From NCBI GenBank assembly GCA_905178155.1, contig CAJINV010000003.1, positions 5,484,728-5,545,775 of the forward strand: a stretch of 61,048 nt of DNA, read 5' to 3'. Of the stretch, positions 1,004 through 55,047 are shown in pieces. The stretch's first letter is position 1; each line of letters starts with the position of its first letter. The position numbers were made by a program, and so were the translations under genes. Under the pieces are notes generated by a model. The model saw nothing but the letters and a program-made list of their open reading frames with translations, was not told where the DNA came from and searched no databases. The DNA comes from Amoebophrya sp. A120 (Eukaryota; Protista; Dinoflagellata).

Positions 1004-4000
1004 TATCAAGTGTAAAAATGTCTGGGTCTGGAAGAGTGCATGTTTGTCATGCTTGTCTGGCATGACTCTCAAATCTGTCATGCACGTTACTCAAGAGCGC
1101 CACTTTTCTGTCATGCAGCAACGCAGTTTGTCATGCAGAATAGGCAACACCTAGAAGCTCAGAAACTTGTCATGCTGAGCCAGCACTTGTGGTCTCCTCA
1201 TGATACGCCACCCAGCAGCACAAGTTTCCAGACCCACACATTTTTGCACTTGATATCAGGGCCGTAATCTCGCCGCTGTCCTCAAACAAGCGCGCGAGGA
1301 GGTTGTGCCCCGTCTTCCCGAGACTGCGTACCCGGCGGTAGGCGTTTTTGAACCCGCGCATTGCGGCGTCCGTGGTCACAGCGTGCACGAGACGTGGATC
1401 ATTGGTGTCTTTCACACCCGCAAGCCCCGCGTCCCCGAGCGTTATCGTAAGGAAGAATCCCTCACCGCATATCGAAAAGGCACGTCTCAGGAGATTTGCA
1501 TTGCTGACTTGTGACCACAAATCGTCTCTGTCTTGCAAGAACGCAACCTCACAGGTTGCCGCACTCTGCAGGCGGTTTGTAATGCTGTTGGCCCTACAGC
1601 CTAGACGTTTGCCATGCTTAGCGCCTAGCCCAAAACTTCCCTACTCCGGGTTGATAAAGGCCTGCTGTCCTCTCCAGCAAGACAAATCTGATTTGTGTAC
1701 GCAAATCCAGCATCAGAAACTTCGTTTTGATATGGGGAGGGGGGATTTTTCCTTTTGATAAGCGTTGTTACGGTTTCGGGGGATCTCCACCCAGCGAGGC
1801 TCCCACGGATGACCACTTCGAACGTGCCCGTGGCGGTGTAGTTTCTTTCCACGTACAGAACCTGGAAGGGCGACGCGCTTCCCGTTGTAGATGGTTGGTC
1901 CGGCCCGGGATGGACGATGTTTACCAACTGCCCGGAGTCCGACTTTATGCCCTGCAAAGATGTTGGATATCTCTATCTGAGCCTGGGTCTGGAAACAAAC
2001 TTTTTTGCATGCAGCTCTCGGTGTAAGAACTATTACTATTCATCATATATTCTAAACAGCGAAGGAAATAAGCTGGTCACTCGTGGTCACAACTCAGCGA
2101 AGTGACTTAAATTTCCAAGGCGCGACGGACATTCATCCGAGGACTCGGAAGGCCCCACAAAAACGGGCGACGCTGGAGCATCCACGTCTATCTGAGACCT
2201 CGTTGGCCATACAGAGTGGGAGCCTGCATAGCAAACATCTGCACTCTTTCTCTTCCAGGAGAGGGAGACCGCGCCCTAGTATCGAACATAGAACTTTGCA
2301 ATGCATAAAGCTGCCGTCGCCCCAGTACACCGTGAACGCGTGTGATTCAGCGCCGTCGAGCGGAAGCTTTACCGATGCGGGAGCGCTCGCGATCTCGATT
2401 TGCACCCGGAACGGATCGTCGTCCGGGGTCAGCAAATCAATGCCCCGTCCGACGGTGGCGTTGTGCTGCGCGTCATTGAAGTGCTCTTGCATCTCCGCGC
2501 TGCCGCATTGACTCAAAACGCCCGCGCCCACCGCCACGTCGGTAGCGATCACGTTTAGGGTCGTGTTGACCGCATCCACCGCGTAGTCGGACCAGAAAAA
2601 TTCGGCGAAGTTTATAACTCGCTCAGGTGTTACAATCTCAAACGTTACAATAGAGTTTGGAAATCTGTGATGCTAAAACAACCGCACCGACATTGCCATT
2701 GTCCAGCGTAGCTTTGGAGGCAAGCCTCCGCAGGTGCTGGAACGGCATAGGGTCAGAACCGCGAAAACATCGCGCGTATTTCTTCATCCCCGGGCACTCT
2801 TATATATTTCGACCATACTTTGCGCTCACAACTGTAATAGAAGCAGACAGGGAGCCCGCGACTGAATCACACAGACCCCCAGAGACCTGCTATACTATGG
2901 AAATCAGTATATGGAGACTGACAGACCCAAGCCGTATAAAGATCTCAAAGATCTACAGCAAGGGCGTTTTAGAGCTTCCACACAGACAGTGCGACTACAA
3001 GACATAGATGTGGATATTGAAGTTCTGCGGCCCTTTCTGTGGACTGGGGGGGATACCGACACAGAAGCTTTGATTTATTTTTGGTTGAAGAGAAGGCTGC
3101 AGAGCGAAAACGAGACCTGTAGTCACTAGTAGAAACAATAACACAAAGACAAACAGAAGCAGCACCATGAGATAATAACTTACCTACCCCTTACCTAAAT
3201 ACCACACGTCGATTAGTCGCACAGCCGTGTGGTCAGGTCCGCGACATCGATCATGGTAGGACCTTGTTGGAAGGTCTGACTTTTAGCGAGAAGTGGGGCA
3301 CTCCTTATCTCCAACCGACTAACCACCGCCGTAGCATGGGGACAAGGCAAGCTGCATACAAAGTCTGGCACTCCTTCCCCATTCCGCGTTTCATTCTGTC
3401 CGCTGCCATAGAATCGCGGCCCTAGCAGGGGAACAAGGCGAGCCGTGCGAGGACTGGAGCCCCCACTTGTATTCCGGCCATGATAGCATCGCAGGAACGC
3501 GTCGGAAAATCGGGGTTTTTTCCGACTTCGGAGACCGGGGATTCCCGACCGCCACTAAAGCGGCAGCCGTAGCATGGGGACAAGGCGAGCTGTGTAGAGG
3601 TTCTGCTGATCCTTCCCCTCTTCGCTTCTTCCTGCTGTCCTCGACCGTCTAATCGCGGCCATAGCATGGGAACAAGGCGAGCCGTATTCCGCAATTTCCG
3701 GCTGTCGCCGTCAGGGAGTGATTATAGACCACGTTCGGAGGCGAAAACTTCGCCTCCACAAAGAGCCGGAAAAGCCTAGGGACTGTGAACTAGGGTTAGA
3801 TGCGGACCTACCTCTTCATCTAGCACAAAGGAAGACTCACAGTCGCGGCGGGGCCTGCATAGGAGCTGCAGGTACAGAGGAGTGCACACCAGGTCGCATG
3901 ACAACGTCCAACACCAAGACAGCCCATAGTTCGCTTTTCCAGCTCTCCGCGAGGCAGCCACATCTTGTTAGTAAACGCAAACCGCGTCCCGCCCAGCGTA

Positions 4001-7000
4001 GTCCGGCCTGCGTTTGGTTCGGAGAAGGGCGGGGGTCGACTGTCCAGGCGCGCAGCCGCCTGTCTTTTGTTTTTTTTATTGTTTTATTTATGAAGAGGGC
4101 AGCAAGGGTGCGAGTTTTCGATGTTGCTACCTAGTACTATCATGAGCTCCCAAAACTACACAGGCCCGCGGTCGCTTTCTGACCGCAACTATGCGGCAAC
4201 CACGCCTTTTGTTTTCTCCATTCACATCGTTTCCAAAATGTCATGCAAGGGGCCGGAGCAGAAAACCAAAAACAGACGCAAACCAGAACAACGAGATGAA
4301 CCAGAAGACGAGGGATGGATAGCACGCATGTGCAGTTAGTTGCGCCTTCATCTCTGGGCAACTCTTGTCTTTCGCCCAGTTCAGCTTGGCCTGCGTCGTT
4401 CCCGTATTGCATCTCGGTTTCTGGAGCCCGTGGGCGTTTCGCGGTGCCGGCGAAGGGCCTTGCTCCTGCCCCGGTACGTTAAGTGCAAAAGAGGACGCAG
4501 GCGATCCATCTTAGTACGACTTGCTGTCGCTCATCGGGATCGCTCGACGACGACGTTACTCACAACGACGCCCTCGTGCCGAGCGAACACTGGAGACCGG
4601 TCCACTTCGCTATTCCAGGCGCGCAACTGGCTCCCGGGGTACCATAGTCGAGCCCTCCTGCGGCGGTGCTTCGACCGCGTTGTTTGCGGCACGCTTTTGC
4701 CGACTCGCGGCCGAGAGAAATAAGGGCGTCTTCAAGAGAAAACACAAAAGCACCCGGTGAGAATGTATATCTATACCCGCCTGGGGCAGCAGAGTGTGAC
4801 CACTGCGATGGAGATTTAGTAGCAGTTGCGGGCTGATCATAGAAACTCGAGGTCAATTTGTTGTAGCGCATCTGTGAAAATATCGTCGTCGTGGTCGTCC
4901 TTGACCGCCTTGGATTCAGAGGCCAGTTCTCCTTGCCCACTGTGCGCGCCCTGGTTGCCACGCGGCCGGGTTGCAGCGTAGTGCACCCTCGTCCAGTGGA
5001 CTAGTTCGATCACTGGGTAATCCGGGCTGTTTGCGTCGTCAGAGGCTGGAGCCCCGATGGGCACTGGCACGGGGTCCTTCGGGTGGGAGGTGGTTAGATG
5101 TATCTTGATCAGGTACTCCTCCGCGAGCGCGGTCAAAGTGAAATGGTCGCCCCAGGTGCCTTCCTGTGCCATTTCCAACAGGTATTCCTGCCACTCGTGA
5201 TCCGAGCAGCCTAGCTGAGCCTGATAATGTGCCCGGTTTACCTGGAGGCGATTGACAGCCTTGGCCCGCAGCTCCTGGTGACGGAGCTCGGACCCCGCGA
5301 ACAACATCTGGCTGAGGGCTCGGAACTGACAGTTTCCGTCCCCTTTGGTTGGCAATCGCCCGAGGTTTCTGGAGTGAAGTCGCGCGTCTATCCGCTCGTC
5401 ATTCTCCTGTTGCTCGTGGAGGGCGCGGAGGGATTCTGCGACTGCTTGGACCTCCCATTTGTCCTGCCCTTCTCTTATATCGCTGCCCCGCTGTGATTGC
5501 TGACGCCCTGATGCCGGCCACTTCGCGTTCTCCTGCCTGTGATGCAAGAATGCATGATCTAGCCAATTCTCATAGGATTGCGCATGACAGGTTCCGGAGC
5601 GGGAGCATCAAACCCCACTACAATCTGGCGAAATTTGTATTGCAGAAAGTGGAACGCTCTGCGAGTCTGTCATGCTCATCATGCAAGACAAGTCTCAGAT
5701 TCTATTGTAACGTTTGAGATTGTAACGTTTGAGCAAGTCATAAAGTTCGGCGTCGCGCACGTGGCGTTGAGAAACATCTCCTTCAGGTTGCCGATCTTAT
5801 GAGACTACACAACTCCCCCTCCCCCTCATTTGTAATGCAAAACTCCAAATTATCCACCCTTTGCCCCTTGGCACTTTTTGCATGACAAGTTCTGCAACCT
5901 CAAACAGCACTACAATCCCGGGTGAATTTGTCATGCAAAACCTGCATTCTTGCCGACGCTTGTATTGCTGTTTGTGCCAGACAAATGAGGGGGAAGGGGA
6001 GTTGTGCACTGTCATAGACCTTGCGCACATTCCAGAAGGAAACCACCGGGCTAGCCTTCACCGCGTTCGCAAACATCCGCCGCATGCTGCGAACGTTCTT
6101 GGTTTGCCAGCTGGTCACGTTCGGTTTCGCGAGTGTTGCCGCCTCGAACATCGAGGCCAAGCTGGTCGCCTGGCGAACGTCCCAGTCGTGCACGACGGGA
6201 TTTGCGGTGGCCGCGTCCTTGAAGAGGGCCGTAAAGGTTTTTCCACTGCCGGTGTCCCACGTATCCACCACCGGGTCAAAGGCCTGGGCATTGGCGAAGG
6301 CGTAGCTGAAATCGGTCACCTGGGACACGTCCCACTTCGCCACGTTGAAGTGAGCCAGCGGGGTGTCTTGGAAAATACTCCGCAGACTCTTCACCTTTCC
6401 CACCTGCCAATCGTTGAGGGCCGTAGTCGCGTAGTTAGCGGCGAGGCCGGCGCTCGCCGAGGTTTCCAGTGCGTCCAGCCCGGAAAAGGTGTAGGACAAG
6501 TCCGTCACTTCGGCGACTTTCGAGGCCCAATTTCCCAGCCCAGGCAGGCGCACCAGCTTGTTCACATTCTGAAACATGCGGGTCATGCTCGTCACCTTCG
6601 AGGTGTCGTACGAAGACACGTCGAGTTCGGTCAGGCTCTGGCAGCAGTCTTCGAACATGGACTGCGTGCTATCCTGAGTAAAAACGTACCCACGTAATGC
6701 AGATTTGCAAAGACAGGAAGACTTGTAATGCGCATCCCCATGAGAGCCATTTCCAGTCGTGCTTTGGAATTTGTGATGCTGTGAACAGAGTGAGCAGATG
6801 AATCTGTGATGCGGCTGCACTTGCTAACCAGCACCACACTGCGGAGCGCAATTTGTCATGCGTGACTCCCTAAACTCCTAGGTTTGTGTTGCAAAATCCC
6901 CATCCTGACTCTGGTGTGGGGACGTTTTTACTCAGGATACGTGCTGGTTGCGGAGGCCCAAAAGTTGCCTAGCAACTGCGCCGTCTGTGGCACCTCCGGC

Positions 7001-10000
7001 ATCATCGAGGACGCCTCCTGGAACAGAAACGGGAAAAGCGATCCGCCGCTGCTGCCGACCGCGCGCAAAGTGCGGAAACTGCGTTTCCACATCCGCGTCC
7101 ATTCTACCGCGGTCGTCGTCCCCGAAGTACTAGATGTTGCCGAGCTCAATATCCTTAGGTCCTTCCAGCCAACAATATTGCCGCGTACAACAACGGAATA
7201 CGTGCCCGTGGCTGCATACGTGTGATTGAGAGCCCCTCGGGACAGATCGGACGCGCCGTCGTCCGTAAAGCAGTCCGAGCAGCGCACGTAAGAAGCAAAA
7301 TCCCCCTTGGACGCCGTCGTTCCATCGCCCCAATGTACGGTAAACCGGTTCGCCGTTTCGTCCTCGTCGATTTGCAGGCGCACACTGAGCTGAGACGCGT
7401 CGGTGAGCTCGATATCCACGCGGAAGGGGGAGTCACCGGGGCAGTTGGGGTCGCTGCCGTCGGTGGTCATGCGCCACAAATCATCACTGCTGTCCGACCA
7501 CCGCGCGCAGCTGCTTTTCACTCCCGTGTCATCGAGCCAGCCCAAGCTCGCTGAGGCGTCTTGCAGGCCCGCCCATCTCGCGATGTTTGGAGTCGCGCAG
7601 GGTGCGCCTTTGAAGAGTCTGGTCATGTCGAGTTCTCCAGCGGCGCTCGAGTTCACCGGCCAAAAGGTCACGCACGGGTTGGCCCGTTGAGCCCCACTAA
7701 AGGCCTCCCGCATGTCGGTCACCTTATCAACTGTAAAAATGTCTGGGTCTGGAAGAATTCATGTTTGTCATGCTTGTCTGGCATGACTCTTAAATCTGTC
7801 ATGCACGTTACCCAAGATCTGCGTTTTTCTGTGATGCAGAAGCGCAGTTTGTCATGCAGAATAGGCAACACCTAGGAGCTCAGAAACTTGTCATGCTGAG
7901 CCAGCATTTGTAGCCTCATCATGAGAGGCTACCCAGCATCACAAGTTCCCAGACCCAGACATTTTTACATTTGATACACCTTGCCAACCTGCCACAGCCG
8001 GACGTCGGGGTCCGCCTTAGCGACGTCTCCGAACATACTCCGGATCACGCGCGCACTGCTCATGTCCCAAGCGGCTACCTTGAGATGGGAAGAGGTGCTC
8101 TCTCGAAACATCGCCGCAAAGTGCCTGCCTTTCTCGGTGTTCCAGGAAGACGTGTCCAGATTCGGATACACGGCACCGGCGGCACGGTCGAACATGCGCG
8201 AGAAGTCCGTATCAAATGCAAATTTGTCTGGGTCTGGAAGTTGATTCTAAACTTGTCATGCTGTTTTTGGACTCTGAAAAAATTTGTATTGCATGACCAG
8301 CAAGAGGGATACAATCTGTGCTACACGGACAGGGCATTTCTCAGGCGGAAGGCGCATCAAGAAGCCCTCTAAAAGTAAGTCTCGTCTGCGAAGCTAGGTC
8401 ATGCATTACAGGCATCATGGGTCATGAGAAATATGCATGAGAAATCTTGCATTCTAATTCTTCCAGACCCAGACATTTTTGCAATACATAGTCCGTCACT
8501 TGAGACACATTCCAGGAGCTCACGTCCGGATTGATAGCGGCTGAGTCCCCGAACATGTCCTGCACCTCTTCCGCGTGGCGGAGGTCCCAGCTCGCCAAGG
8601 TCGCCGCGATCTTCGAGCCAGTTCTAGCAAACATGCCCTGAAAATGCTTCCCGCGCGCCACGGGCCATGCTTCGATGGAATTGCTACCCGTGCTAGCGAT
8701 CTCCAGTGCCTGACCACCCTGGAACATCGCCCGAAAGTCTGTCACCTGCGACACATCCCAATCCTTGATCCCTGGCACAGTATCGACGACCGGCAACTCT
8801 GCAAAAGCATACGACACGTCCGTCACCTTTGACAGGTCCCAGGTCTGCACACTCGCCACGGTCTGCAGCTTGGCCGCCCTGCGGAAGAGAGCGCGCACAC
8901 TCCGCACCTTCGACCAGTGGCGGAGGAACACTTCGTTGTCTTCGCTGGTGAGCTGCGTGACCTCCGAGCTGTGCTCGTACAAATGGGCAAAAAGGTTGTG
9001 GCCGGTCTTGCCGAGGCTCCGGACCCGGCGGTAGGAGTTTTTGAAGTTTGCCACCTCCCCGTCGGTCGTCGTTACATACGGGAGCCGGGCGTCGTCGGTG
9101 TCCCGGACGCCCTCCAGCCCAACGTCACCCAGGGTTGTCACGGTTTCCGCCGACACCCACCCTCCGAGGCTGCCGCGGATGACAATCTCGTAGGTGCCCG
9201 TCTGTGTGTACGTTTTGTTTGCGGTGAGCACTTCGTGGTAGGATGTGCCGTTCGCCGCCAGGAGGCCGCTGACGCCGAGGCTGGCCGGGTAGACCATTTT
9301 GGAGAACTGTCCGGAGTCGGCGTTGGTGCTGCTGTCCCCCCAGAAGATCGTGAACGCGTGGCCCCCTCCCGTGGCCGCGGCCAGGGGCAGACGTACATTC
9401 AACGGCGCGGTGACCACTTCGATTTGCAGTCGGAAGGGGTCGTCGTCTTCGCCGGCAAGCAAATCCAGCCCCCGACCGTATTCCGAATCCTGCACGGCGT
9501 CGTTAAACTGACCCTGCATTTCGGTCGTGCCGCAGTGGGTGAGCATTCCGGCGAAAACGCCCACATCGGTGGTGGTCAGCCCCAGACTGGGATTCTCCGC
9601 ATCCACGGCGTAGTCGGACCAGTATCAAATGCAAACATGTCTGGGTCTGGAAGAATGCAAGTTTCTCATGCTTGTCTGGCATGACAGACTCTCAAACAGA
9701 TCTGTGTTGCGTCAGCACGAAGAGGCTGCTCTCTTGCATGTCATTGTTGTTGTTAGACGGCCCCCCTGTGGTCGTCCTCACGGCGTCATCATCATCTTGG
9801 CCCTCGGCTGTTTTGGACAGATTTTGGTTGTGCCCAGCAAGATGCCGGATGTCATGCAAAATAAACGCAGTTTGTCATGAGGAATACGCAACACCTAGCA
9901 GCCCAAAAAGTTGTCATGCTTGGCTGCGTATTGCATTTGCAGTGCGAAAAATATCATTCATTTTTAGCATTTACACGCAGACATATAATTTGCAGTCCAT

Positions 10001-13000
10001 AACCAGTAGTCCTCCGCGAAGTTCGGAGTAGCGCAGGTGGCGTTGTAGAAAAATTCCTGGAGGTTGCCCGCCTTGCGGACATTCCAGAACGAAACCACGG
10101 GGCTGGCCTTCACCGCGTTCGCGAACATGCGCGTGAGTACACGGACGTTGCCCGTTTGCCACCCGGTCACGTTGGGCTTCGCGGCCGTGGCCGACTCGAA
10201 CATTGACATCATGTCCGTCACCTGGCGCACGTCCCACAGAGTCACAGCTGGGTTCGCCAGCGGCAGGTCGCGGAACAGGTGGGCCAGGTTCCTTGCGCTG
10301 CCCGTGTTCCAGTTCCCCACTACCGGCTGCGCCGAGGCCGCGCCGCGGAACATCGCACCAAAGTCCGTCACGGCGGAGACATCCCAGCTCGACACCGCGG
10401 GATCCGCGGCAACCGCGTTCTCGAACATGCGGCCGAGGTGCCTCGCCTTGTTAGAAACCTGCCACTTCGAGGTGTCGGGAACCACCTCAGCGCCGGCGTC
10501 GCGAAACATCCCTTCGAAGGTCTGCACGCTAGAAACGTCCCAGTTTTCCGTGGACGCCGCTGCTATCGTCACCTGCGTGCAGCCCGCGAAGAGGTTACGA
10601 AGGCTGGTGGCGGCCCCCAGGGCCCAGGACCCCAGGCCAGCAACGGTCGTTATCCAGTGCAAACATCAATATGTCTGGGTCTGGAAACTTGTGACGCTAA
10701 AATGTGGATGATGGAGACACTTTCGAATGCACCAGCCCAGCATGACATCTTTCCAGAACGCTTTCTCGTAGGCAGTCCGCATGAGAAACTACCGCGTTTT
10801 TGCATGACAAAAATGGCTGCCACTTCTTTTGTTGGTTATGCAATCCAGATCTACTACCAGAAATGTAGAGCTAGCATTACAAATTCCAACTTTCCAGACT
10901 CAGACACATTTGCATTTGATAGTCGTGAGCCCGGAGCAATCCTGGAACGCAGCGTCGAAATTGCGGACCGTCGACAGGTCCCAGGTCGCGGTGCTGAGAG
11001 CGGTGAGGGTGGCCGCTCCGCGAAACATTCCGCTGATGCTGCTCACCGCTGGCGCGCCCCAGTACCTGCGCAGCAGGGACGGGCGGACCGAGTAGGAGCT
11101 GTCCCCCAGAATGGTGGCCCCGTCGTACAGGTTCTGCAAAAGCCCCGGCCCGTGGGGATCCTGGTAGCCGACGTTCAACAGCTGCGTCCACGCGCGCTTG
11201 AACGTCGTGTATTGGTTCTCCTGTCCAGATGAAGTCCTCGAGGGCTGCCACCCGGTGGTGAGTCCGCGAAATCGCACCGTCACCACGTACTCGCCGGTCG
11301 TACTTATCGCACAGAGACAGAAAGTTAACGCTTGCCATAAGCATTCCACTTGGATTAAGAACTTTTTCGCGATAGGATACGAGAAGGACGCACGGAAGAT
11401 GAAGATCTGTCCTGCAGCAGCATCTCTTGAGCAGAAAGTACTTAGTTCCAATTACTGCCTGCCCAATATTAATGAATGTCATGACACTTCTTCATTCCTA
11501 CTTTACTTTGTCAATTATTCTACCCGGGGCCATCATCATTTCCAAATGCCAACAGCAAAGACCAAAAGGCGCGCTAAAATTTTCTGCAGGATATTCTCGT
11601 AAGTATACGAAAAAGAGGTCGTCGCAGCCACCGCGGTCCCGCTGTTTGCCGTGGCGTCCCGTGTCACATTCGGGCCACTACCGGGCACGCCCCAGTAAAC
11701 CGTGACGCGGCTCGCGTTGGAGGAGCTTACAGCTTCGGGGAGAAGCGGCAGCGTCACAGTGTAAGGAACGGTGTCGATCCGGAGTTTCACGCGGAAGGGG
11801 TCCTCCTCCCCGGGACAGGCAGTGTCGGCCCCGTCCGCCGTCGTGGCCAGTTCCTCTGCCGTGGGCCCCGACAGGTCGGCAATATCGTTAAAGTGTGACT
11901 GGTCAGAGCAGACTTGATTAGCCAGAGAAGTGTCGCCGGCGGAGAAGACTCCGGCGCCCTGCAGCATCGTATCGGGATCAGGTCCCAATTTCACACTCGC
12001 ACGGAAGTTGAGGCCCGCCAAGTTGGGCGTGGCACAGTGCGCATTGACAAAGAGATTCTGCACAATTCTTGCAGCAGAAACGTCCCAGAGCCCCACACAT
12101 GGGACTGCCACTTTTGCGCCGTTGAACATCTGTTGCATGTTCGTAACCTTGGACACGTCCCAATGCGTCACGTTCGGTCGCGCGCTGATCGTCTTTGAAA
12201 ACATGAAGCTTAAGTCCACGGCATTTCCCATCGACCACTCCCCGGTGGCGGGGTCCGCCTTCCTCGCCTCGTGGAACATCGTCTTAAAATTTGAGCCCCT
12301 GCTTGTGTCCCAGGCGGAGGTGTCCGGCGTCGCTTCCACTGTGCCACGAAACATTTCCGCGAAATTTTCTACCTGGCCGGTGTTCCAGTTCGCGACGTCC
12401 GGGTTCACTTTCCCGGCCAATTTAAACATCCCCTCTAAAGTGGTCACGGCACCGGTCTGCCACGCGCCAAGGTTGTCGTCCGGGGGAAATTCCAGCTCAG
12501 CACAATCCTGAAACATTCCCTCAAAGCTCTCTGCACTGGAGACGTCCCAACCGCCGATGCCGGAGATCCGCGTGACCTTGGAATCTTCGAACGCAAAATT
12601 GAAATTGCGGACCGTCGACAGGTCCCCTCGTACAAGGGAAGGCACACCCGTACCAGAAAAGGAAACGACTTTTTGTACTTATTTGCATTTGCGGTGTGGT
12701 GATGTGACGAAACTCCGGTAGAGGAACGAAAACCTGCCACGCAACATACATAGTGACTGCATCGCGAAAAAGAAAATGTAGTGCAAGCTTCTTAGACAAA
12801 AAAATATTTGTCAGGCGAGCTTGAAGAGCTGCCCTCGTCCTGTCGTTGGTTTCCTGGATGTTAATTGTTAATCGCGAAAAAGACAAAAAGCTCACAAAGG
12901 TACCACGAAGATCAAGATTTCTGAAGATGATAAACAGACAACAGTCGCCACCTTTTGAATTTGATGCTTTTCGTGCCACGAGACTGCGTCACAAGCAATA

Positions 13001-16000
13001 TTTCGTAGTATGGTATGGGCGTGCTTCTTTTTGTAGGATACCCAGGTCGCGGTGCTGAGAGCGGTGAGGGTGGCCGCTCCGCGAAACATTCCGCTGATGC
13101 TGCTCACCGCTGGCGCGCCCCAGTACCTGCGCAGCAGGGACGGGCGGACCGAGTAGGAGCTGTCCCCCAGAATGGTGGCCCCGTCGTACAGGTTCTGCAA
13201 AAGCCCCGGCCCGTGGGGATCCTGGTAGCCGACGTTCAACAGCTGCGTCCACGCGCGCTTGAACGTCGTGTATTGGTTCTCCTGTCCAGATGAAGTCCTC
13301 GAGGGCTGCCACCCGGTGGTGAGTCCGCGAAATCGCACCGTCACCACGTACTCGCCGGTCGTACTTATCGCACAGAGACAGAAAGTTAACGCTTGCCATA
13401 AGCATTCCACTTGGATTAAGAACTTTTTCGCGATAGGATACGAGAAGGACGCACGGAAGATGAAGATCTGTCCTGCAGCAGCATCTCTTGAGCAGAAAGT
13501 ACTTAGTTCCAATTACTGCCTGCCCAATATTAATGAATGTCATGACACTTCTTCATTCCTACTTTACTTTGTCAATTATTCTACCCGGGGCCATCATCAT
13601 TTCCAAATGCCAACAGCAAAGACCAAAAGGCGCGCTAAAATTTTCTGCAGGATATTCTCGTAAGTATACGAAAAAGAGGTCGTCGCAGCCACCGCGGTCC
13701 CGCTGTTTGCCGTGGCGTCCCGTGTCACATTCGGGCCACTACCGGGCACGCCCCAGTAAACCGTGACGCGGCTCGCGTTGGAGGAGCTTACAGCTTCGGG
13801 GAGAAGCGGCAGCGTCACAGTGTAAGGAACGGTGTCGATCCGGAGTTTCACGCGGAAGGGGTCCTCCTCCCCGGGACAGGCAGTGTCGGCCCCGTCCGCC
13901 GTCGTGGCCAGTTCCTCTGCCGTGGGCCCCGACAGGTCGGCAATATCGTTAAAGTGTGACTGGTCAGAGCAGACTTGATTAGCCAGAGAAGTGTCGCCGG
14001 CGGAGAACACTCCGGCGCCCTGCAGTATCGTATCGGGATCAGGTCCCAAATTCACACTCGCACGGAAGTTGAGGCCCGCCAAGTTGGGCGTGGCACAGTG
14101 CGCATTGAAAAAGAGATTCTTCACAATTCTTGCAGCAGAAACGTCCCAGAGCCCCACACATGGGACTGCCACTTTTGCGCCGCTGAACATCTGTTGCATG
14201 TTCGTAACCTTGGACACGTCCCAATGCGTCACGTTCGGTCGCGCGCTGATCGTCTTTGAAAACATGAAGCTTAAGTCCACGGCATTTCCCATCGACCACT
14301 CCCCGGTGGCGGGGTCCGCCTTCCTCGCCTCGTGGAACATCGTCTTAAAATTTGAGCCCCTGCTTGTGTCCCAGGCGGAGGTGTCCGGCGTCGCTTCCAC
14401 TGTGCCACGAAACATTTCCGCGAAATTTTCTACCTGGCCGGTGTTCCAGTTCGCGACGTCCGGGTTCACTTTCCCGGCCAATTTAAACATCCCCTCTAAA
14501 GTGGTCACGGCACCGGTCTGCCACGCGCCAAGGTTGTCGTCCGGGGGAAATTCCAGCTCAGCACAATCCTGAAACATTCCTTCAATGTATTACAGTGAAA
14601 AATGGGTCACCCTGATCCGAAGTTTCCAAATGAAAACTTTTTGTCATGCATGAAAGGAGTGCCAATCTTTCTGATGCAGAGTCTAGGCGTATCTAGCATC
14701 GCTTGCATGGCAAGCGGGAGCGCCGCTCTTGCTGGGATCTTTTGCAATACAAATATTTGCTCTTCACGATTGAAAACCTGTGACGCTGATAGATGCAAGA
14801 GGGCGAGTATTCCATTTGGAAAGGTTTGCAATACAAACGCTCCCAAGTTCTGGGGTGGGGGCATTTTTCATTGTAATACAAGGCTCTCTGCGCTGGAGAC
14901 GTCCCAACTGCCGATGCCGATGATCCGCGTGAGCTTGGTCATATGAGCAGGCACAACTCCTCCTCCCCCTCATTTGAAGGGCACGAGCAGCGGCAATAGA
15001 AACAGTGACAGAGTTACCCCTAGCGCTGTTGCTGTAGCTTTTGCATTACAAGTCCAGACGCGGACTGTATTACTGTCTGAGTTGTACTCCAGTTTGTCAT
15101 GCAAGGCAGCGCTACATAGTACAAGTACTACAAGGCAAGAGCAAGACCAAGAGCTCGAGTCGCAGCTTTGCATTACAATCAAATGAGGGGGACGGGGGGC
15201 GCTGGGCGCTCTGATAGGTCATGCCAGCGAACGCGAAGCGGAACGTCGTCACCTTGCTCACGTCCCACTGCCGAGCGTCAAGCTCGGTGATGCCGGAGTC
15301 CTGCAGGAACCGACTCATGTCCGTGTCAAGGAGAAAAATCCCCTCCCCATATCAAATTCTCTGGCGCGGGATTTCAGGACACAAATGTTGAGTCCTGTCT
15401 TGCAGTAGAGGACTGCAGGCGTATGCCAGGCCTGAGGCGCCGCGAGGTTTAATTTTGGCGTAGGCAGCTAGCATGACAAATGTCTGCGCTGTAAGCCCAG
15501 CAGCATCGCCACAATCCGCCTGCAAAGTGCGGCGGGCTCCCTGGATAATGTGCCTTCTTGCAACACAGACAGGATTTGTGGGCACAAACCTCCAGCACAA
15601 ATTTTGATTTTCAGACGGATGGCGCGCTTACAATATAACTCCTATTGCTGAGCGGTGTGAGTTAAAAGTTTGCGCCGGGAACGAAAACGATCAGCCTCGG
15701 ATTTTTTTTCGCAAGTTTAAAACTTTCAGGTTCTTCGACGAGTGTGCGAAGCTCTGTGTTCAAAAATTTTCGCACAACTTTGAAAGTTTCAGGATCTTCG
15801 AAGAAAGTGCGAAGATCGGCGTCGTTTCCTTCGGTGGGTCGTTTATTGCGGAGAATTTTTCTGGCGCGAAATTTCCGCGCGCGAAATATTTTGCCGAGCC
15901 GAATTGTTTTCCCTGGCGCCTTTTTTTTGGACAAGAATATTGCGCGCCCAAAATATTTTGGCCGCCGCGGTTTTTTTGCTGAGAGCAAATTTATTTTGCC

Positions 16001-25000: not shown

Positions 25001-28000
25001 ATGCACATTTTTTTTGGATGACCCATGATGTCTGTGAAGATGTCAGCATAGATAAAAATTCTTTCAGAGTTTCTTGATGCTTATCGTTATCCCGCAAGAG
25101 GAACAGTGCCGTCTCCGCATAGTAAAAACTGAAGCCCTCATCTTCTTGCTGCTGGAGCTGGTCATGATGCAAGAATATATTTAAAGATTAATTTTGTTAG
25201 AATCACAGCTAAAAATGATCACAGCACGACAAGTTGCAGCATTCTTCCAGACCCAGACAGAATATTTGCACTTTGTACTCCCCAGCGTTGGCGTACGTGT
25301 AGTTGAACGCGGAGAATCGCGAGAGGTACACGTTGGGAGGCGTGTCGTCGGGGGTATCACCGAACTGCACCCACGGCGCGCCGGTCCAGAAGAGCTCCCC
25401 CAGCTCGGTAGAAGACGAGGAGGCGCCCGCCGCGCTCGCGTCGCCCCAAAACACGGTGAAATCGTTGTCGTGGAACGGCTCGAGCCCGTTTTCCAGGTAC
25501 CCGCTGACCCAGTTGGTTGGCACGTTTAGGGGCAGCTGCACGGTGGTGCCAGGCGAGGTTATAACCTGCTCAGGTGTTACAATCTCAATAAACGTTACAA
25601 TAGAATCTGGAATTTGTCTTGCAAGAAGTGCATGATCTACCACCCTACTCCCACAGGATTCCGCATGACAAGTTTTGGAGTCCCAGTCCGCACTACAATC
25701 TGGCGAAATTTGTATTGCAGAAAGTGGAATGCTGTCCGAGTCTGTCGTGTTGATCATGCAAGACAAATCTCAGATTCTATTGTAACGTTTGAGATTGTAA
25801 CGCTTGAGCAGGTCATAGAGGTGATCTCGATTTTCACCCGGAAGGCGTCGTCCTCGGCGCACGCGATCTGGTCGGTCGCCAGCGAACAGACCGCGTCGTC
25901 TATTACAGTAAAAAATGCCCCGACCCCGGAAGTTGCAAACGTTTCTCATGCATAAGGTTTTCAAATGAAGAGCTAGAGCTTTTTATCTATGCATGAAAGC
26001 ACTGCGAGTCTTTCTGATGCAAAATCTAGACTGCGCAAGGTATCTTTTTTTGCATAACAGATCCGCCTGCTGTTGGGCTCCTTTGCAACGCCAATTTGAG
26101 CTATTCAGCATGGAGTAAGAGTCTCTGTGATGCTGATATATGCAAGAAGGCGGGGAATGTTTCCATTGGAAAGATTTGCATATACAAATACTGCCGAGTG
26201 CTGGGCGGGAGGGGGCATTTTTCACTGTAATATCGTCCAGAATGTCCGTCCCCAGCGCGGAGCGAATCGGACGCTGAGACTCGTTCAGGCCCCCGTACCG
26301 GAACCCATATTCGGCGGTGGTCTCGTCGTAGCTCGTGATGGCCACGAAGTCCCTCATCCGCGACCACCAACTGTTCACGTTGGGGGTAGCACAAGAGAGA
26401 CTCCGAAACATGTCCCCGAAGTCGGAGGCGTTGAAGCTGACGTTCCAGTGGGAAACACAGGGCGACGCGGACGTCGCGCCGCTGAACATTTCCGAAAACC
26501 TGAGCCCTTCTTCCACCCGCCACCCGCGGACGTCAGGGTTGGCGCTCGTCGCGTCCTTGAACATGCGGGAGAAGTCGGTTCCGCTGGAAACGTCCCAACG
26601 TTGCGTGTCGGGGTCAGCCAAGGTTGCGCCCTCGAACATGCTCGAGAAATCGGCGCCGCTGGAAACGTCCCAATACTGCGTGTCGGGGTCAGCCGAGGTT
26701 GCGCCCTCGAACATGCGGCTGAAGTTCTTCCCGCGGGACACGTCCCAGTTGCCCACGATGGGGTTGGACTGGTTAGCCCCCAAGAACATCGCTCCGAAAT
26801 CCGTCGCGCTTCCCACCGTCCAGTTCCTGAGGTCCACCACCATCTGCGGCGAGGACGAGCCGGAGCCCCCACTGAGCGCGCTGGACAATTGCCGCCGCCC
26901 GCCTCCGTCCGCGGGCCGTCCCGTGAGGCCCACGCAACCGTCAAACATCCCCGCGAAGCTTGCCACCTTGGCCGTGTCCCAACCGTACACGTTGGGATTC
27001 GCGTTTGCGGCCCCCGCAAAGACGCCCGTCATGTCCTGGACATTGGAAGTGTCCCACGAGGCGACCGCGTCGTCCAAGTTCAGATTTGCCATGCCAGAGA
27101 ACATCCCGGACAGCGATTTCGCCTTGGAGGTGTCCCAGGTCTCCAGACCGACCAGCTCGGTGATCGCCGTGCCGCCTTCGAACATTTTCTCGAAGCTGGT
27201 GATCTGGCTCGTCACCGAGGCGAGCGCAGACAGGTCCAGCGCGCCGGAGAGTTTGGCGTTGCCTTGAAACGCCCCCGCCATGGACCCGGACGCCGCGAAG
27301 CTGGTCGCCAGCTCGGTCAGCACCTCGGGCGTCACCTCTTCGATCTCACTGAGGGGCGGCCGCGGCTGCGTGGCCTTGCTCCGACCCCGCGAGAGCACGG
27401 TGGTTTGCATCGTTTTGTAATTGGTTATTTTGGCCTGGTCACTCTCCGCCAGTTGGGAAATCTCCTCGTCCGTCAAAAATGTCGACCGAAACCGCCCACG
27501 CACGACGACCTGGCGGGTGCTGTCCAACGCACTGGCGTCATACGTGTGCTCCACCGTCAACGGGCTCTGCAGCGGTCGCCAATACTTCAACAGATTTCCG
27601 ACAACGTCCGTCGCCAGTGTGAACAGTTGGACACCGCACACGGAGATTCTTCCCTTTCCGTTCCGGTGATTGGTCCCGAACCTGATCTGATTAGTCGATT
27701 TCCCCTGCAGATCATGAACCGTGCCGGTCCCTGCCGTTTGGCCGTAGTTGATGTTTAAGTTTACGGCTCCGTATCCCACGAGTGTGTACCTCATGTAACT
27801 TATGTCACTACTATAGCCTACCCAAAAGATCATCTTGGTCAGGGAGTACGTCCCCCCCAGATTAAGAAAGAATTTGCCATACTGATAGTCCCTGCTCTGG
27901 TAGCAGGAGGTGACGCTCGCGTGCTCAGACGCGAAGGAAAGCTGCTCTTCCATGTTTGCGTGGTTCGGATCGAAGCGCAACGGGTTATCCTTCCCCAAAT

Positions 28001-31000
28001 GGGCCGCGTAGGACTCTCGATGATAAGTGGTCATCTGCGATAGCGGCAGCTCCACCTCGGGGGCATCGTACAAGGGGACCTCGCGGGTGTCGTCCTCGTC
28101 CCAGAAAAACTGCAGGTTTGGTTCTTCCGTGTCTGCCACCGGGAAGCGGACCGTGCGTTCCTCGCTGGTCGTTCCAGTAGCGGGAAGCTTGAGTAGGGCC
28201 CGGTAGGGGGTGTCGCTGGGACAGTGCAGGTCGCGGCCCGGGCCGTCGATCGCGCCAAACAGGTAGTCCAGGTTCGCACATTCCGTCGACAACCGCCCCG
28301 CACCCTCCGCCCAGCGGTCGACGATCAGACCAGCCCAGGCTTTTGCATCCGGCTCGTCGAAGATGGCTCCCATGGTGCCCCCGCTGGAATACACCTTTTG
28401 CAAGGGCCATCCGGCGAGGTTTGGGGTGGCGCAGGGGGCGCCGCGAAACATGGAATTCATCAAAATCCCGTGCGCTGGCAGGGCATCCATGTTCTGTCCG
28501 GTGATGGAATTCGACCGTGAGAAAACCAGCGCGATCGTCTCGCCGAGCGTGCGCGCCACAGCTTCACGCGCGGCACTGCCGACAGTTGTATTCTCGGGGA
28601 CATACATCATGGACCCAGCCACGCGCCAATCCGTTACGCACGGCGCCAGCTGCTTCGCAAGGTTGAACGCGTGGCGAAAATCGGTCCCCCGGGACACGTC
28701 CCACGCGGTCACATTGGCGCCCCACCTGAGGCTCTCTGCACCACGGAACATGGAGTTAAAAGAGCCCACACCCGAGACATTCCAGTTGTCCACCCCGGGC
28801 TGAACGATATCGAAAGGAGAAACTCCCCCTCCCCATATCAAAGCGAGGCTTCTGATGGTGGACTTCCACACACAAATCAGATTTGTCTTGCAGTTGAGCA
28901 CCGCAGGCATATGCCGAGCCTGAGTCGAGAGGTTTTGACGTAGGCGCCCGCGCCTAGCATGGCGCCAAATGTCTATGCTGTAAGCCCAACAGCATCACAA
29001 ACCGCCTGCATAAAGAGGCGGACTCTCTGGAGTTGCCTCCTTGCAAGACAGACAGGATCTGTCTCTGTGGTCACAAACCTACATATACAAATTTGCAACC
29101 GGATGCGTTTTCAGTACGGGGAGGGGGGATGTTTCCTCACAATAGACGACGCGCAAGATTTCGTTTCCGGCCACGTCCGGGTCTGCGACCAGCCCGGATT
29201 CCCCCAGCATCGTGAGCTTCTTGCAGTCCCGGAACATGCCGGCAAGCGATGCAACGCCAGATACATCCCACGTATGCAGCCCGCGCACACTTGTTAGCTC
29301 CTGACAGCCCCTGAAAACATTTTCCACCTGTCGGAGAGGGGCACAAGAACTTCTAGTACCGGGGCCAGGGACAGAAGCAGAGGCGGCCGCTCCCGCTCCA
29401 CCAAGGAATCCTTGTCCTTGGTGGGTTTTTGCAGCTGAGCGCGGCTCTAAAGGCGGCAAAAAGCCAACGTCTACGGCAGTCAGCTTGGTGGCCCCTGCGA
29501 ACATGCTTCGGAGCGAGTACTGGCATGGCGACGCTGCGAGGCTTGGGAGCGGCGCCGGACCTCCTCCTTGCTGGCTCGCAGTCACGGTTTCGTGGGCAGT
29601 CGACAGCTCTTGCCGAAGACGCGTAAAGGCGGCATCTGTGGCGACAAACGTTTCTAGGTGTTGGCTCCCCCGGAACAGGCCCGGCACCAGCGCGCGGCGA
29701 CTGCGGCCCAGCGCAAGCACTTCTGACCACGGCGAGTTCCGCGCAGAACTGGAGCCGTCCGGGGTGGCAAAGGAGGCACCAAGCCACCCTGCGATTTTAC
29801 CTCGAATCGTCACATGGTACGTCCCGGCGCTCCGAAACACGTGGCGAAGCTGCGGCTTTTCGCATCGTAGAGTGCGGGGGTCAAGCAGAAACCCGTCGTT
29901 GCACTTGCGGCAAGCGTTTGCGCGCCTCTTCAGCGAGACCCGTGCGCACGCCGGGAAAATGGCAGGTTCCCCGTTGGTGCACTGACATTCGCTACCCGCG
30001 TGGTAAATGGTGTATGCTGTACACGCCCCGGCCGGACACGGTAGAATCCTCGCCTTCTCTGGACAGTGCCCGACCGTCGCAGGCGAACCATCGACAATCG
30101 TGGCATGGAAGCTGCTCCCGGCCGCCGGGCAGGAGGTGGAAAGGGTGACGTCCGTGCTGCTTCCGAACGCTGCGGTGTACGATTCTGCATTGGGTTCGGG
30201 CCGACCACTGCTCGGCTCAAGCTCGATCTTTCCCGCAGTCGTCGCTGTACCATCGTGGTTGGCCTTGGAGACGAGCCAACCGTCCGCGGCATCTTCCTGC
30301 AGGGTAGTTGACCAATAGACGTCGCCACTACTTTGCACGAAGCCCCAGGTAACCACGTTACCCTTCGCAGGGAGCACCAGCTCGCGCACACTCAAGCCCG
30401 TCTAACCTGTGGAAAAACGTCCCCGCCTCAGAGTTGTCACGCAAATCTGCTTGCTTAGAATCAATGCTTCTCATGCGGAGCACCATGAGAAGCACTTTCT
30501 ATATTGAAGTTGTGTTTTGTTGTTTGTGATGCTTAAACCGACCGAAATTAGTACAAACGCGCCTTGCATGTTCCCCTTCCGCAGATGGTCGGGCGTCCAA
30601 TGCACGGAGTCAGACGGACCACCAGGGCCATCGTCATCATTCTTTGGGGTTTGTGATCGTGATGCTCGAATCAGCATAATGTTAGTATACATTTGTAATC
30701 CTGCACCTGCTGAAGACAAGTAGGTAAACAGGATTTTTTTGTTATGCGCAACAGGCAAGAAAGCTGAGTGATTTGTCTACTACTTAGCAGCTTGCCCATC
30801 GTGACAGACTCTGGAGTGGGGACGTTTTTGGTCAGGATACCGTCCCCTCCTCAACCATCTCGCCCAGGGCCCGCGCCGAGGCCGCGAACCGAACCTGGTC
30901 GCTCTCCTCCTCGGGCTCGGTGTAGTCCGCTACATCCGACACGAACTCTTGGCCGCCGACGGTGATCCTGCGTTCCGTAGGTGGCGGACCTCCTATGGCG

Positions 31001-37000: not shown

Positions 37001-40000
37001 TTATTTACACAGGATAAAGTCCATGCAGAGAAAGGAACTGGTACCTGGACGGGGCGGGAAGCACCGGGCTGGACCGCAAAGCGTCTTCCACGTACGCGTC
37101 GTCCACGTTGTTCTCCTCCTCGTCCTATCAGATGTAAAAATGTCTGGGTCTGGAAGATTGCCAGGTTTGTCATGCATATTTTGAATGATCCATGATGTCT
37201 GTGATGCATGCCCTAGCATCACAGATTTTTAGAGGACTTAGCGATGCCTCTACCGCATGAGAAACTTCCTTTCCGCGTAGCACAAACTGGAGTCCTCTTG
37301 CTGGTCATCATGCAATACAAATTTTGATTTTCTTAGAATCCAGAGACAGCATTACATACAAGTTTAGAATCTTCCAGACCCAAACATTTTTGCAATGCAT
37401 ACGTCATCCCGCCGCGCGCGCGCATACTCGAGATCGGCCTGCTGGCGGTGGCGACGGAGCAAAGCCCCCAAGTGATGCGCATCCACCGTTTTCATCGCTT
37501 GGCTGAAAAGGTTGGCGTTGAAAACCTTCGCGAAGTCTTCGTTGTGTACGCCCCCCAGGGCGCCAACGGTCTCGACCTGCATTCCCAGGGCATCGTAGAA
37601 GTTTTGCACCTCGCCCGCGTTTACCGACTTCGCGTGCGGGCGTTCCCATCCATCCTGAAACTGCCCAGTCAGGGTGAGTTGGTAGACCCCGGAGTGATAG
37701 AAGGTGTGCACCGCATCGGCGCGGGTGAACCGAGAGATTTCTTCCTTCCCCAGGCGCTCGCGCACGAAAAAAACCTGGTTTGCAGCGCAGCCCGAAATTT
37801 CCACGGTCGCGAGTTGCAGCCCGTCCTCCCGATTGCCCACATGCAGCTCGTGGAGGCCCGGCGAAAGCGCGACCGCGATCCCTACTTTGTCGGACGGTAG
37901 AGTGACTGTAGCGTAGGTGTTTGCTTCGGAGTCCGTTCGTCCATGGTCTGCGCCGCCGTTTCCAAATGTATGGGCTGTATAATCTTCTTTGTCAGCCCAA
38001 TCCGCGAGAGAGTCGGCAGCGGAGTCCCACCAGACGTAGAGGCTGTCGTCGAGAGCTCGTCTTTGGCATTCTCCGAAGACGCCATAGGGGAAGCGGAAAT
38101 TTATCTCACAGGCTTCGGTTGTAAAATCCGCATCGTTGATGCTATTCACAGTCGTGACCCGCGCTTGAATTTTGTATTGACAATTGGAAACCGAAGTGCT
38201 GTGTGCGTTGTAAACGAGAAAGGAGGCCATCCCGAGTTCGCCGAGGTGCGTGTATTCCGGTGCGACCGGTGAGAACTGATCCGCCGGCATAAGTTGTACA
38301 TTGTCTGCCCGGTTTGGAACTGCAAGATATTTTCGGAATTCGTGTCCTTGCACCTGCGATCCGTCGGTTCGCGCATGCGTATCCGTTACCACCTGCATGC
38401 GCCCACGCAACCTGTGATAATCGTGCGCCGCGTAAATTTTCTGTCCGAGCTTCTCGAACACTTGGCCGGTTGCCTGGTCCTCCACGAGATCTGCACGGCC
38501 GGCGGCGGCATCGGAGAGGCTCGGCGAACCGCTGTCCACCGCGTGCGGCGCAGCCACACACTGGTGCTCGGCTACGGAGCCCACGTACGCCGCCCGGGGG
38601 ATGGCCGGGCAGGGCCCCGTGGTCACGGTCCCGTCTGCCACCGTGCTCCAACGGCAGCAAGCCCCGGGGTGTCCCTCTGCCGTGTCACAGGCCGCGCAGA
38701 GCGCGTTGTTCGTGCAGCTGCCCGGGCAGGCCCGCCCGGTACCAGCGCGCAGCGCCGGCTTCGGGTACTCGCGCGCCTCCGGGGGAATGATACAGACGAA
38801 GTCGCTCGTGCGCTGGAACACATCCACGGGCACTGGCTTTCCCGCCGAGACGAGGCAGGGATCACGGGGACCCGCGCCCCACTTGCAGCAGGCGCCGGCA
38901 ACTCCGCGCTCCACGTCGTCGCAAAAGGTACACCATCCCCCCTCTTGACCACACGACGCGTAGCAGCCACCAAGGCCCTGTGTGGGCTCCACCTGGTCCT
39001 CTCGACGTAGGGTGGTAGTTGTGCCAGCACCTCCTCCCTTGGACGACCAGGAAGATACGCCCCGGCGCGACCCTTCCACGGACACCTCCAGCACCTCCCC
39101 CGCGACGCGGCCGTGCAGGTCGTCAAACAAGGTATGACTTGCAAGAGTAATATCGTAATCGTACTACTAGTATGGATTGCATCACAAATTCTGCCAAGAG
39201 CAAAAATGGAGTTTGTCATGCTGGAAATTGGAGGTAACAAGGACAGATATCAATATGTGTCATGCATGTTGACTGAATGCAATTCATACGAGTTCATGTA
39301 CTTATATATACGATACATTTGCACTGGATACAAGGAGGGCCACTGCAACAGAAGGTACTGCCCGGGGCTCGCTCGTGAGCAGTCCACCGTGATTTGATAC
39401 GTTTCCGAGATCGGCGTCGCGAGGGGGAGCCCTCGCTTCGTACCATACTCCTTCTCGAACCTGACCGTTTCGCAGGCCTCGTCGAGGCCGCTCGGAGCCT
39501 GGGAAGCGAGAAAGTAATCTGGGCACTCCAAGTCATGCTGAGGCATTTGCTCTGGGAGCGGTTCATCCTGTATGAGAGTGCACAACTCGCCCTCCGCCCC
39601 CTCATTTGTATTATAGCATGAACGGCAATACGAGCATTAGCAAATGCAAAAACGCAGGTTTTGCATGATAAATTTGCACAGGAGAGTAGTGCCATTTCGG
39701 CTGCCAGAAGAGATGAACTTGTCCTGCATACCCGACTGCACCACATCAAAAACCTTTGCACCGTCGCCGCAAGCAGCTACGGCCGCAGGAGATCTAGGGT
39801 CAGAACCGCGAAAGGTATCGCGAGTATATCTTCATCCCCGAGATGAACTTGTCATGCAAACAGTGCCAAGAGGCACAGCCTGGGTTTGGTATTTTGCATG
39901 ACAAATGAGGGGGACGGAGCGTTGGGCAACCTCATATCCTGCCCGATGGGGTCGCAATACTCAAACCTCACGTTCGGGTCTATCGAATGCAAGTATGTCT

Positions 40001-52290: not shown

Positions 52291-52919
52291 TCGAGCAAGA
52301 AAAAGTTTCGGGTCACACCATAAAATTAATTAAATAATTACAAAAAATGAAATTAAACGCAGCAATTCATTATTTACCACAGCACGCCCCCGATGGTACG
52401 GCGGGCCTTGTCGGCGCCTCCGGGCCGCAGCGCTTTGCCGGCCTGGCAAAACCAGGGGCCGGCGATTTCGCGCAAAATCCATGCGGCTGGTCAGACGCTT
52501 CCACGCCGCCCCAGGACCAGCAACAAGTCTGGGCGCCGGCCAGCGCCTTGCCGCTTCCGGGCGTCCTACGCGCGTAGGGAGCCCGGAAAAGCCCCGCGGC
52601 CTTCTTTTTTCGGGCGCCCTACGTACAGGCGGGCGGGGCCGGCGGACCAAAAAGTCGCGGCAACCTTCGCCCGGCGGTAGCTTAGCAGCTGTCCCCCGAG
52701 CCCGAGCCAACCGGCCAACCCGCTCTGTGATCTTCGTCACGGCGAACTTTTTCGCCAAAATCGCTGGGCGACAATTTCGTGGCCCGTCCCCACACCTGGC
52801 CAGACGCCTCCGCCCCAGCCATGAAGTCAGCCACAAATCCGGACGACGGGAACCCTGTCGCCGTTTCCGGGCGTTCTACGGGCGTAGGGGGCCCGGAAAC
52901 GCTCGGCGGCGTTCCGGGT

Positions 52920-54610: not shown

Positions 54611-54750
54611 GCGCAGGATAAAAAGAAAGAACCACGCGGCCCATCATAATAATGACGAGCAACGCTCTATGCTAAATAACAACGCTTATTCTACCAAGTC
54701 AATAAGTCAGCTACTAGGTCCATCTAATTAATTAGTTAGTCTATGACTAC

Positions 54751-55029: not shown

Positions 55030-55047
55030 TTCATTCTGACTCACACT

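Follow-up and report, generated by a model that had tools for sequence, protein, structure and literature searches.

Introduction

The usual targets of sequence-specific retroelements are long conserved genes or a single family of transposons. The closest described parallel to the locus studied here is SINEU-3 of crocodilians, a non-autonomous retroposon found within the non-autonomous DNA transposon Mariner-N4_AMi in 313 of its 347 copies, with target-site duplications (TSDs), copies truncated at the 5' end and elements inserted in tandem around a TSD (PMC4494074). In Xenopus, the non-LTR elements (those lacking long terminal repeats) Tx1L and Tx2L use another transposon, the Tx1D DNA transposons, as a low-cost site (PMC6719617). 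Target-specific non-LTR elements typically show precise 3' and varied 5' junctions, as do the early-branching Utopia, NeSL and R2, in which TSD length is specific to the family (PMC4640811). In this work, we describe inserts within the introners (repeated introns) of a 61,048-bp stretch of the dinoflagellate Amoebophrya sp. A120 (contig CAJINV010000003.1), hereafter the window, and of two metagenome loci, L009 and L014 (85.6 kb examined in total). The inserts join their hosts at the octamer TGTSATGC, and we consider, with a probability of about 0.68, that they are retroposons copied in by target-primed reverse transcription using a sequence-specific enzyme of the long interspersed nuclear element (LINE) type. 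That target-primed reverse transcription acted in some form is very probable.

Insertion at a Short Motif in Introners

The window is eukaryotic, with long minus-strand frames bearing DUF285 and Kringle domains and split by about 50 introns of 150-460 bp. These introns have terminal inverted repeats (TIRs), mostly beginning with TAT, and a run of A, in agreement with the description of the A120 introners (inverted repeats starting with TAT, a run of A, about 250 nt), for which 29,850 repeated introns have been reported (PMC7789003). TGTSATGC occurs 76 times in the window: 73 times in our hand-curated introner set (52 pieces, 13.2 kb, with approximate ends), which amounts to about one per 180 bp, once in 27.7 kb of exon and other sequence, and twice within the 2.9-kb insert described below. 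The wider form TGTNWTGC is found in introners in 124 of 130 cases, 73 of these 124 being TGTSATGC, and the motif is biased 47:26 in strand relative to the gene (a 64% background). Several copies of the motif and its variants occur per introner, across families with differing TIRs, and almost none in exons. TGTSATGC is thus a candidate cis-signal for the splicing or mobility of these introns, in a lineage reported to lack U1 small nuclear RNA (snRNA).

A preliminary description of the window had placed four inserts in four different introner families. All four are present, with TSDs of 9, 7, 7 and 18 bp, and their flanks join contiguously in intact paralogues of four introner families (table 1); in read contigs, the site of insert 1 was also seen empty (joint 2673 to 5551). 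For insert 4, previously given as 39729-39839 with a 19-bp TSD, the place and the single mismatch hold, and the insert is now 39728-39839 with an 18-bp TSD. The supposed nineteenth base (A) belongs to the element, because both other copies of its family start with A and the right flank at L014 lacks it. The left TSD copy of insert 4 reads TGTCCTGC, which contains the mismatch, and the right copy carries the exact motif. Landing at the motif was borne out for inserts 1, 3 and 4, which lie directly after the motif position, but not strictly for insert 2, which is offset by 2 nt.

These four inserts had been picked with knowledge of the motif, so metagenome contigs were scanned with a pattern internal to the element, the flanks being left unused, to avoid that selection. 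Fifty loci matched, and two of them, L009 and L014, are introner-rich and contain relatives of insert 4 (L009 and L014a), 95.5-97.3% identical to it. The other 48 were rejected as unrelated chance matches that have only the pattern in common and contain 0-0.34 motifs per kb; viral contigs gave no matches. Each of the two relatives follows TGTCATGC at its joint, the host introners being of families D and A. An exact motif junction has p = 0.0028 per insertion even with inserts restricted to introners, and the two flank-blind copies, both exactly at the motif, have a joint p of about 8e-6 given their introner location.

L014 also contains, in a neighbouring introner that belongs to a further family, a GC-rich, unrelated insert of 96 bp (7563-7658, L014b), whose 18-bp TSD has the motif at its end. 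It was first spotted by eye and then recovered by a motif-blind direct-repeat scan of L009 and L014, in which 21 rows were returned and the three rows of at least 16 bp were the three TSDs, all ending in or at the motif. In the window, the corresponding scan gave 93 rows, chiefly repeats between introners, and no tally was taken from it. Altogether, six of the seven inserts lie exactly after the motif position and one is offset by 2 nt, and the junction motif has the form TGTSATGC in all seven (in insert 4 through the right copy), with p of about 0.025 against the TGTNWTGC background in introners.

These results bear on the possibility that inserts merely survive in introns, where the motif is dense, and were then picked by a reader who knew it. 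The concentration of the motif in introners and the way in which the first inserts were chosen would suit such a coincidence, but the exactness of the junctions and the two flank-blind hits do not. Neither do the other element types found within introners: a Helitron and a tandem-repeat element near 52293 join 23-170 bp from the nearest exact motif and therefore do not use it. Chance overlap with a dense motif, a concern since the first inspection, is ruled out in the case of the insert-4 family and unlikely in that of the remaining inserts, and as a general account it is scarcely credible. Sequence-specific insertion at the motif is well supported.

The preliminary description gave the TSDs as variable in length. 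Across the seven inserts they measure 7, 7, 9, 17, 18, 18 and 18 (plus a 3-nt duplication) bp and do not vary freely but form two classes, 7-9 and 17-18 bp. Small internal duplications are present in the right-hand TSD copies at L014 8159-8179 and at 30648-30665 of the window, which suggests re-priming during second-strand joining.

Route of Insertion

Target-primed reverse transcription yields products with one end fixed at the target, a far end that varies and a staggered duplication (PMC4640811). In the insert-4 family (insert 4, L009 and L014a), one end is identical to the base and the lengths are 112, 177 and 226 bp; the three copies are 95.5-97.7% identical and have TSDs of 17-18 bp. Insert 1 shows the same pattern in the reads: its depth relative to single-copy sequence falls from 36-44x at 2718-2826 to 8x at 2827-2935, 5-6x at 2936-3044 and about 1x beyond, figures summed over contigs from X1-X3 (one sample) that are a rough guide rather than true copy numbers, part of the peak coming from other subfamilies that match the conserved core. 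The TSDs are host-derived and differ from locus to locus. No terminal repeats were found in the 2.9-kb insert, nor terminal inverted or long terminal repeats (LTRs) at the ends of the short inserts. Since the fixed end is the 3' end, the element strand is the minus strand, which agrees with the orientation of the reading frame in insert 1. The fixed end, the nested truncations, the depth gradient, the TSDs and the absence of terminal repeats make this the likely route, as had been proposed; the accompanying proposal of a single element did not hold (see below).

We suggest that the endonuclease would nick just 3' of TGTSATGC and that the freed end would prime the synthesis of complementary DNA from the RNA of the element. 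The TSD would arise through a second nick at a distance of 17-18 nt or 7-9 nt. The duplication would restore the motif on both sides, so that the introner would keep its ends and its motif and a second element could land in tandem, as may have happened with the two pieces of insert 1. More speculatively, the elements might be transcribed as part of the intron, and a kink-turn near their 3' end might protect or present the RNA. Introners might be a safe haven for the inserts, which we regard as a reasonable inference, and Tx1L and SINEU-3 are precedents for such a strategy.

The specificity might instead lie in RNA or in host nicks: the introner or host machinery would nick the motif, and an ordinary reverse transcriptase (RT) would prime on intron RNA carrying a complementary motif downstream of the passenger. 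The finding of unrelated passengers at the same site and the lack of a tail in six of the seven inserts are in keeping with this, as is the location of all inserts on the strand of the host gene, although the latter reaches only p of about 0.05 given the strand bias of the motif. A (GGTT)n run replacing the motif at 41617 also hints at breaks there, and annealing between RNA and target at priming has been described for SART1 and R1Bm (PMC7265360). On the other hand, the recurrent 17-18-bp TSD suggests a defined second cut, and no captured introner fragments were seen as passengers. Recognition of an RNA end is suggested by a weak likeness of the 3' tails, between L009 and L014b (p = 0.002) and between the first part of insert 1 and insert 3 (p = 0.01), with 15 pairs tested. 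Annealing and a specific endonuclease can moreover act together, and the internal priming without homology reported in PMC11167929 lends no support to the pairing idea. We regard this alternative to a sequence-specific LINE-type enzyme as unlikely.

Passenger Families

Insert 1 is probably made up of two pieces in tandem, A and B, joined at an internal motif, as the limits of read contigs indicate. Depth rises by 2.6-2.9 copies above baseline only in the bin 4244-4352, and the small excess in the preceding bin fits extra copies starting near 4238. Read contigs end at 4267 and start at 4243; with words of 31 letters, presumably the word size of the assembly, these limits correspond to branch points at 4237/4238, just outside the motif, and at 4242, its variable S position. 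A second family with further copies flanked by the motif would branch off at such points. Between the 13 bases preceding 4247 and the outer TSD region there are two to three differences, so that the A and B events may have come in either order. Tandem insertion around a TSD is a described feature of SINEU-3 (PMC4494074).

Piece A is non-coding and has no Rfam match. A loose end in X3 shows a further copy of it behind TGTGATGC, with a different upstream base, and in read contigs one or more additional long copies are seen that have diverged and in which 140 bp are skipped or replaced (3013-3154, 3709-3728). Within piece A, the four sub-repeats of about 20 nt at 3328-3685 resemble, on the minus strand, the target motif with two to three extra bases in its middle; they may be decoy sites or a product of chance.

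The terminal segment that the preliminary description saw in both the 2.9-kb insert and its 111-bp insert (insert 4) is confirmed by a local score of 83, against a maximum of 34 in 500 shuffles, and inserts 1 and 4 are 69% identical over 109 columns. Other links are weaker: insert 1 to insert 3 with a local p of 0.014, and insert 2 to insert 3, its best link, with p = 0.026 and none to inserts 1 or 4. L014b has an 8-nt word near its 3' end in common with the insert-4 family. An earlier model, R1, had matched insert 3 as a family member only because insert 3 was in its training set, and this assignment was dropped. The passengers are thus of at least three types, perhaps five.

Piece B ends in a cysteine-protease frame of the OTU type. 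The frame is already open at the boundary of the insert and lacks a methionine ahead of the catalytic cysteine, so that it is 5'-truncated. No parent gene was found for the OTU part at 85% identity or more. Its relatives were collected as 26 longer proteins plus the best 150 of 2637 representatives (176 in all); among these 176 matches they are about 25-47% identical to it, and none is close. Pfam domains were determined for 31 of them, revealing one pairing of PIF1 with OTU (P0103), one of Pol_BBD with OTU and one of OTU with GIY-YIG. The RT and endonuclease that had been expected upstream of the OTU domain were not found among the 31 scanned matches, and this, together with the single-copy state of the OTU stretch, is compatible with their presence as well as their absence in a complete element. 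Piece B could be a retrocopied mRNA.

The OTU domain also raises the question of DNA-based transfer, by which Helitron, HUH or Ginger-type fragments carrying OTU would have one fixed end. The domain has been given for Ginger1 transposases, at their C-terminus, and for Helitron proteins, not for LINEs (PMC2836005). The match P0103 combines OTU with PIF1, and a Helitron is present in the window; the latter, however, lies away from the motif. The locus-specific TSDs of 7-18 bp and the lack of terminal inverted repeats do not fit either, given that Helitrons make no TSD (PMC12130899). We therefore consider such an origin highly improbable.

Several observations weigh against a LINE-type driver or against a single element. 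The inserts encode no RT and no endonuclease of the apurinic (APE) or restriction-like (RLE) type, all copies seen being truncated. No RT occurred among the 31 scanned OTU-like proteins, and the only one among the window frames scanned is of the Copia type. The OTU stretch is single-copy in the reads, so that there is no close master copy in the sequenced sample, and the presence of OTU in Ginger1 and Helitron proteins points away from LINEs. A covariance model built from inserts 1, 4, L009 and L014, leaving out insert 3, did not detect inserts 2 and 3 and found L014b at noise level only (E=6.6). The depth gradient is open to the reservations given above, and insert 2 joins its host at a palindromic site, with an offset of 2 nt into the motif. 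A repeat tail, (AAC)n on the minus strand, is present in insert 2 alone, one insert in seven, so that neither poly(A) nor simple-repeat tails are a general feature of these inserts. Such a 3' tail is usual, not universal, in products of target-primed reverse transcription. The picture of one element has accordingly given way to several families that use the same target, inserts 2 and 3 escaping the family model and the 2.9-kb insert probably being double.

A lead for the driver may come from the large A120 families fam2, fam6 and fam16, which have hits to LINE peptides and for which end coordinates of 7.1-8.3 kb are listed (PMC12130899); these coordinates may reflect nested LINEs. Nested inserts may also explain the LINE or non-LTR labels on some TIR introner families.

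A Predicted Box C/D-Like Kink-Turn

Box C and box D have known consensus sequences. On the element strand of inserts 1, 4, L009 and L014a, a C-like box and a D box enclose a hairpin, with a closing G-C stem; in insert 3 the pair of C and D boxes is perfect. A scan for this kink-turn geometry, designed after the motif had been seen and relating to a predicted fold only, gave six matches in the 85.6 kb on both strands, five of them in inserts; the background is 1.7e-6 per base, and when insert 3 was shuffled 5000 times, one shuffle scored. All box-bearing inserts have their D box 72-79 nt from the fixed end, and between subfamilies no stretch is better conserved than the kink-turn (92% over 52 nt between insert 1 and L014a). 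The variable end of insert 4 lies 4 nt upstream of the C-like box, which is about where mature small nucleolar RNAs (snoRNAs) begin relative to box C. We hypothesize that the kink-turn may have a role in the element RNA. In the literature searched, covering few subscription journals, no kink-turn has been reported in a retroposon 3' end.

Other measures were less telling. Rfam returned nothing at threshold for inserts 1, 2, 3 and L014 7450-8350 (insert 4 being covered through its L014 relative), no significant fold z-score was obtained for the 3' ends (+1.2 to -1.4), and compensated pairs numbered 5 of 31, from two subfamilies only. ARAGORN found no transfer RNA in the window, and no small-RNA head was matched in Rfam, the 5' ends of the inserts being truncated. 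The RNA run X6 had 0 reads on the inserts and 0 even on the introners, and is thus no measure of expression.

A box C/D snoRNA proper was rejected as an identity for these inserts, given the 72-79 nt that follow the D box and a best Rfam E of 4.8. A Penelope-like element was likewise set aside, as neither a hammerhead core pattern nor an Rfam match was found, a weak test on fragments only.

The boxes also raise the possibility that the passengers are retrocopies of cellular RNAs, namely box C/D snoRNAs and an OTU mRNA, and not transposon ends. Inserts 1, 3 and 4 have C- and D-like boxes, the best snoRNA match in Rfam is that of insert 3 to SNORD113 (E=4.8, below threshold), and the OTU frame resembles cellular OTU proteins at the identities given above. 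Yet the long stretch beyond the D box, a homology between subfamilies that spans 215 aligned columns, and the failure to find either an Rfam match at threshold or a close OTU parent gene speak for transposon ends. For the set as a whole we find cellular RNAs very unlikely, the idea staying possible for piece B; targeted reverse transcription would still be required, so that the nature of the passenger would change and the targeting would not.

A bolder and rather unlikely extension of targeted retroposition would see a guild of promoterless retroposons in the introners. They would be transcribed with the host intron, trimmed and stabilised in a snoRNA-like manner by the kink-turn, and re-inserted in a partly RNA-paired way at the 8-bp motif common to all introner families. 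The motif would then also serve the introners as a functional signal, in non-canonical splicing or in mobility, which the parasites would exploit and, through the duplication, keep.

Other Features of the Window

Positions 1-52220 form, on the minus strand, a very long host coding region, which may comprise more than one gene. DUF285 repeats and Kringle domains are numerous in it, and it probably encodes a surface protein. Exon blocks are tandemly duplicated at 10938-12626 / 13041-14585, a near-identical pair that includes an intron and is separated by a 414-bp non-coding piece, and at 42423-43308 / 43311-44199. The Helitron-like element (15637-~23770) lies in the right TIR region of a family-B introner, not at the motif and with no TSD seen; it has a 1153-aa Helitron_N/PIF1 frame (19281-22742, minus) and tandem repeats at 15850-17645. 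At 52293-61048, the 2.3-kb tandem-repeat element breaks a family-A introner. Behind it lies a Copia element in a degraded state, which has an RVT_2 domain and whose LTRs are at 54751-55021 and 60778-61048. The (GGTT)n run (41617-41685) stands in place of the first TGTCATGC and the next bases of a family-A introner and starts within the motif position, possibly as the repair of a break at the motif. A family-E-like introner at 46866-47329 is over-long (464 bp), with no clear TSD, and may contain an old insert.

Table 1. Positions of the inserts, their hosts and internal features in the window
Feature	Position	Strand	Evidence or remarks
TIR introner of family C, interrupted by insert 1	2602..5722 (approximate ends)	.	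Flanks align contiguously to paralogue 25556-25820
Left TSD of insert 1, CTGTGATGC, ends in target motif	2665..2673	+	9 bp exact
Insert 1	2674-5536	-	2.9 kb; TSD 9 bp
Piece A, non-coding, fixed (3') end at 2674	2674..4238	-	65-69% identity to insert 4, L009, L014a; depth gradient
Box C/D-like kink-turn hairpin, piece A	2748..2792	-	C-like box 2781-2787, D box 2753-2756; fold predicted
Repeat pair, period 238-239, ~119-nt unit, two ~20-nt sub-repeats each, diverged	3328..3685	.	
Internal TGTCATGC, probable joint of pieces A and B	4239..4246	+	Depth step, contig breaks
Piece B: ~590-nt 3' non-coding part and OTU frame (truncated); 4247 is probably a 3' end of its own	4247..5536	-	Depth
OTU cysteine-protease frame, 232 aa	4837..5535	-	PF02338 E=1.4e-11; OTUD1 structure 4bop E=6e-10
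Right TSD of insert 1, CTGTGATGC	5537..5545	+	9 bp exact
Insert 2 and TSDs	9738..9855; insert 9745-9848, 104 bp	.	7-bp TSD ATGTCAT (9738-9744, 9849-9855); family-A introner
Insert 3 and TSDs	30526..30665; insert 30533-30658, 126 bp	-	7-bp TSD GTGATGC; family-E introner
Insert 3 boxes, perfect C and D pair	Box C 30634-30640, box D 30610-30613	-	
Insert 4 and TSDs	39710..39857; insert 39728-39839, 112 bp	-	18-bp TSD, 1 mismatch; family-D introner

Comparison with Known Systems

In the text and supplements of PMC7789003 and PMC12130899 that were searched, neither an internal TGTSATGC nor nested targeted retroposons are mentioned, and our literature search, with few subscription journals covered, gave no report of motif-targeted inserts in introners. 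If our interpretation is true, a third layer of parasitism would be added, that is, gene, introner and retroposon. The number of available sites would reach tens of thousands if the density seen in the window holds (cf. the repeated introns counted in PMC7789003). An enzyme capable of target-primed reverse transcription with 8-bp specificity would merit isolation.

Compared with the early-branching non-LTR elements, the junctions and the grouped TSD lengths are much alike, the TSD of the reptile Utopia being 20 bp, and some of those elements also carry a cysteine protease (PMC4640811). In Utopia, NeSL and R2, however, the protease is an N-terminal Ulp1 and the targets are RNA genes (PMC4640811), whereas here an OTU domain ends a truncated frame, and RT and RLE were not seen in the fragments. 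Tx1L and Tx2L are autonomous, with a known endonuclease and a single targeted transposon family (PMC6719617), unlike the present inserts, for which no enzyme was found. SINEU-3, the closest system, has an snRNA-derived head and one target family (PMC4494074), whereas no small-RNA head was found here with Rfam and ARAGORN among 5'-truncated copies, and at least five introner families, whose ends differ, offer the 8-bp target motif, the hosts being introns and the passengers belonging to several families. The targeting of DNA transposons by retroelements was therefore already known from Tx1L and SINEU-3; what differs here, and did not appear in the literature searched, is a short motif shared across introner families, several passengers that use it, intronic hosts and the kink-turn.

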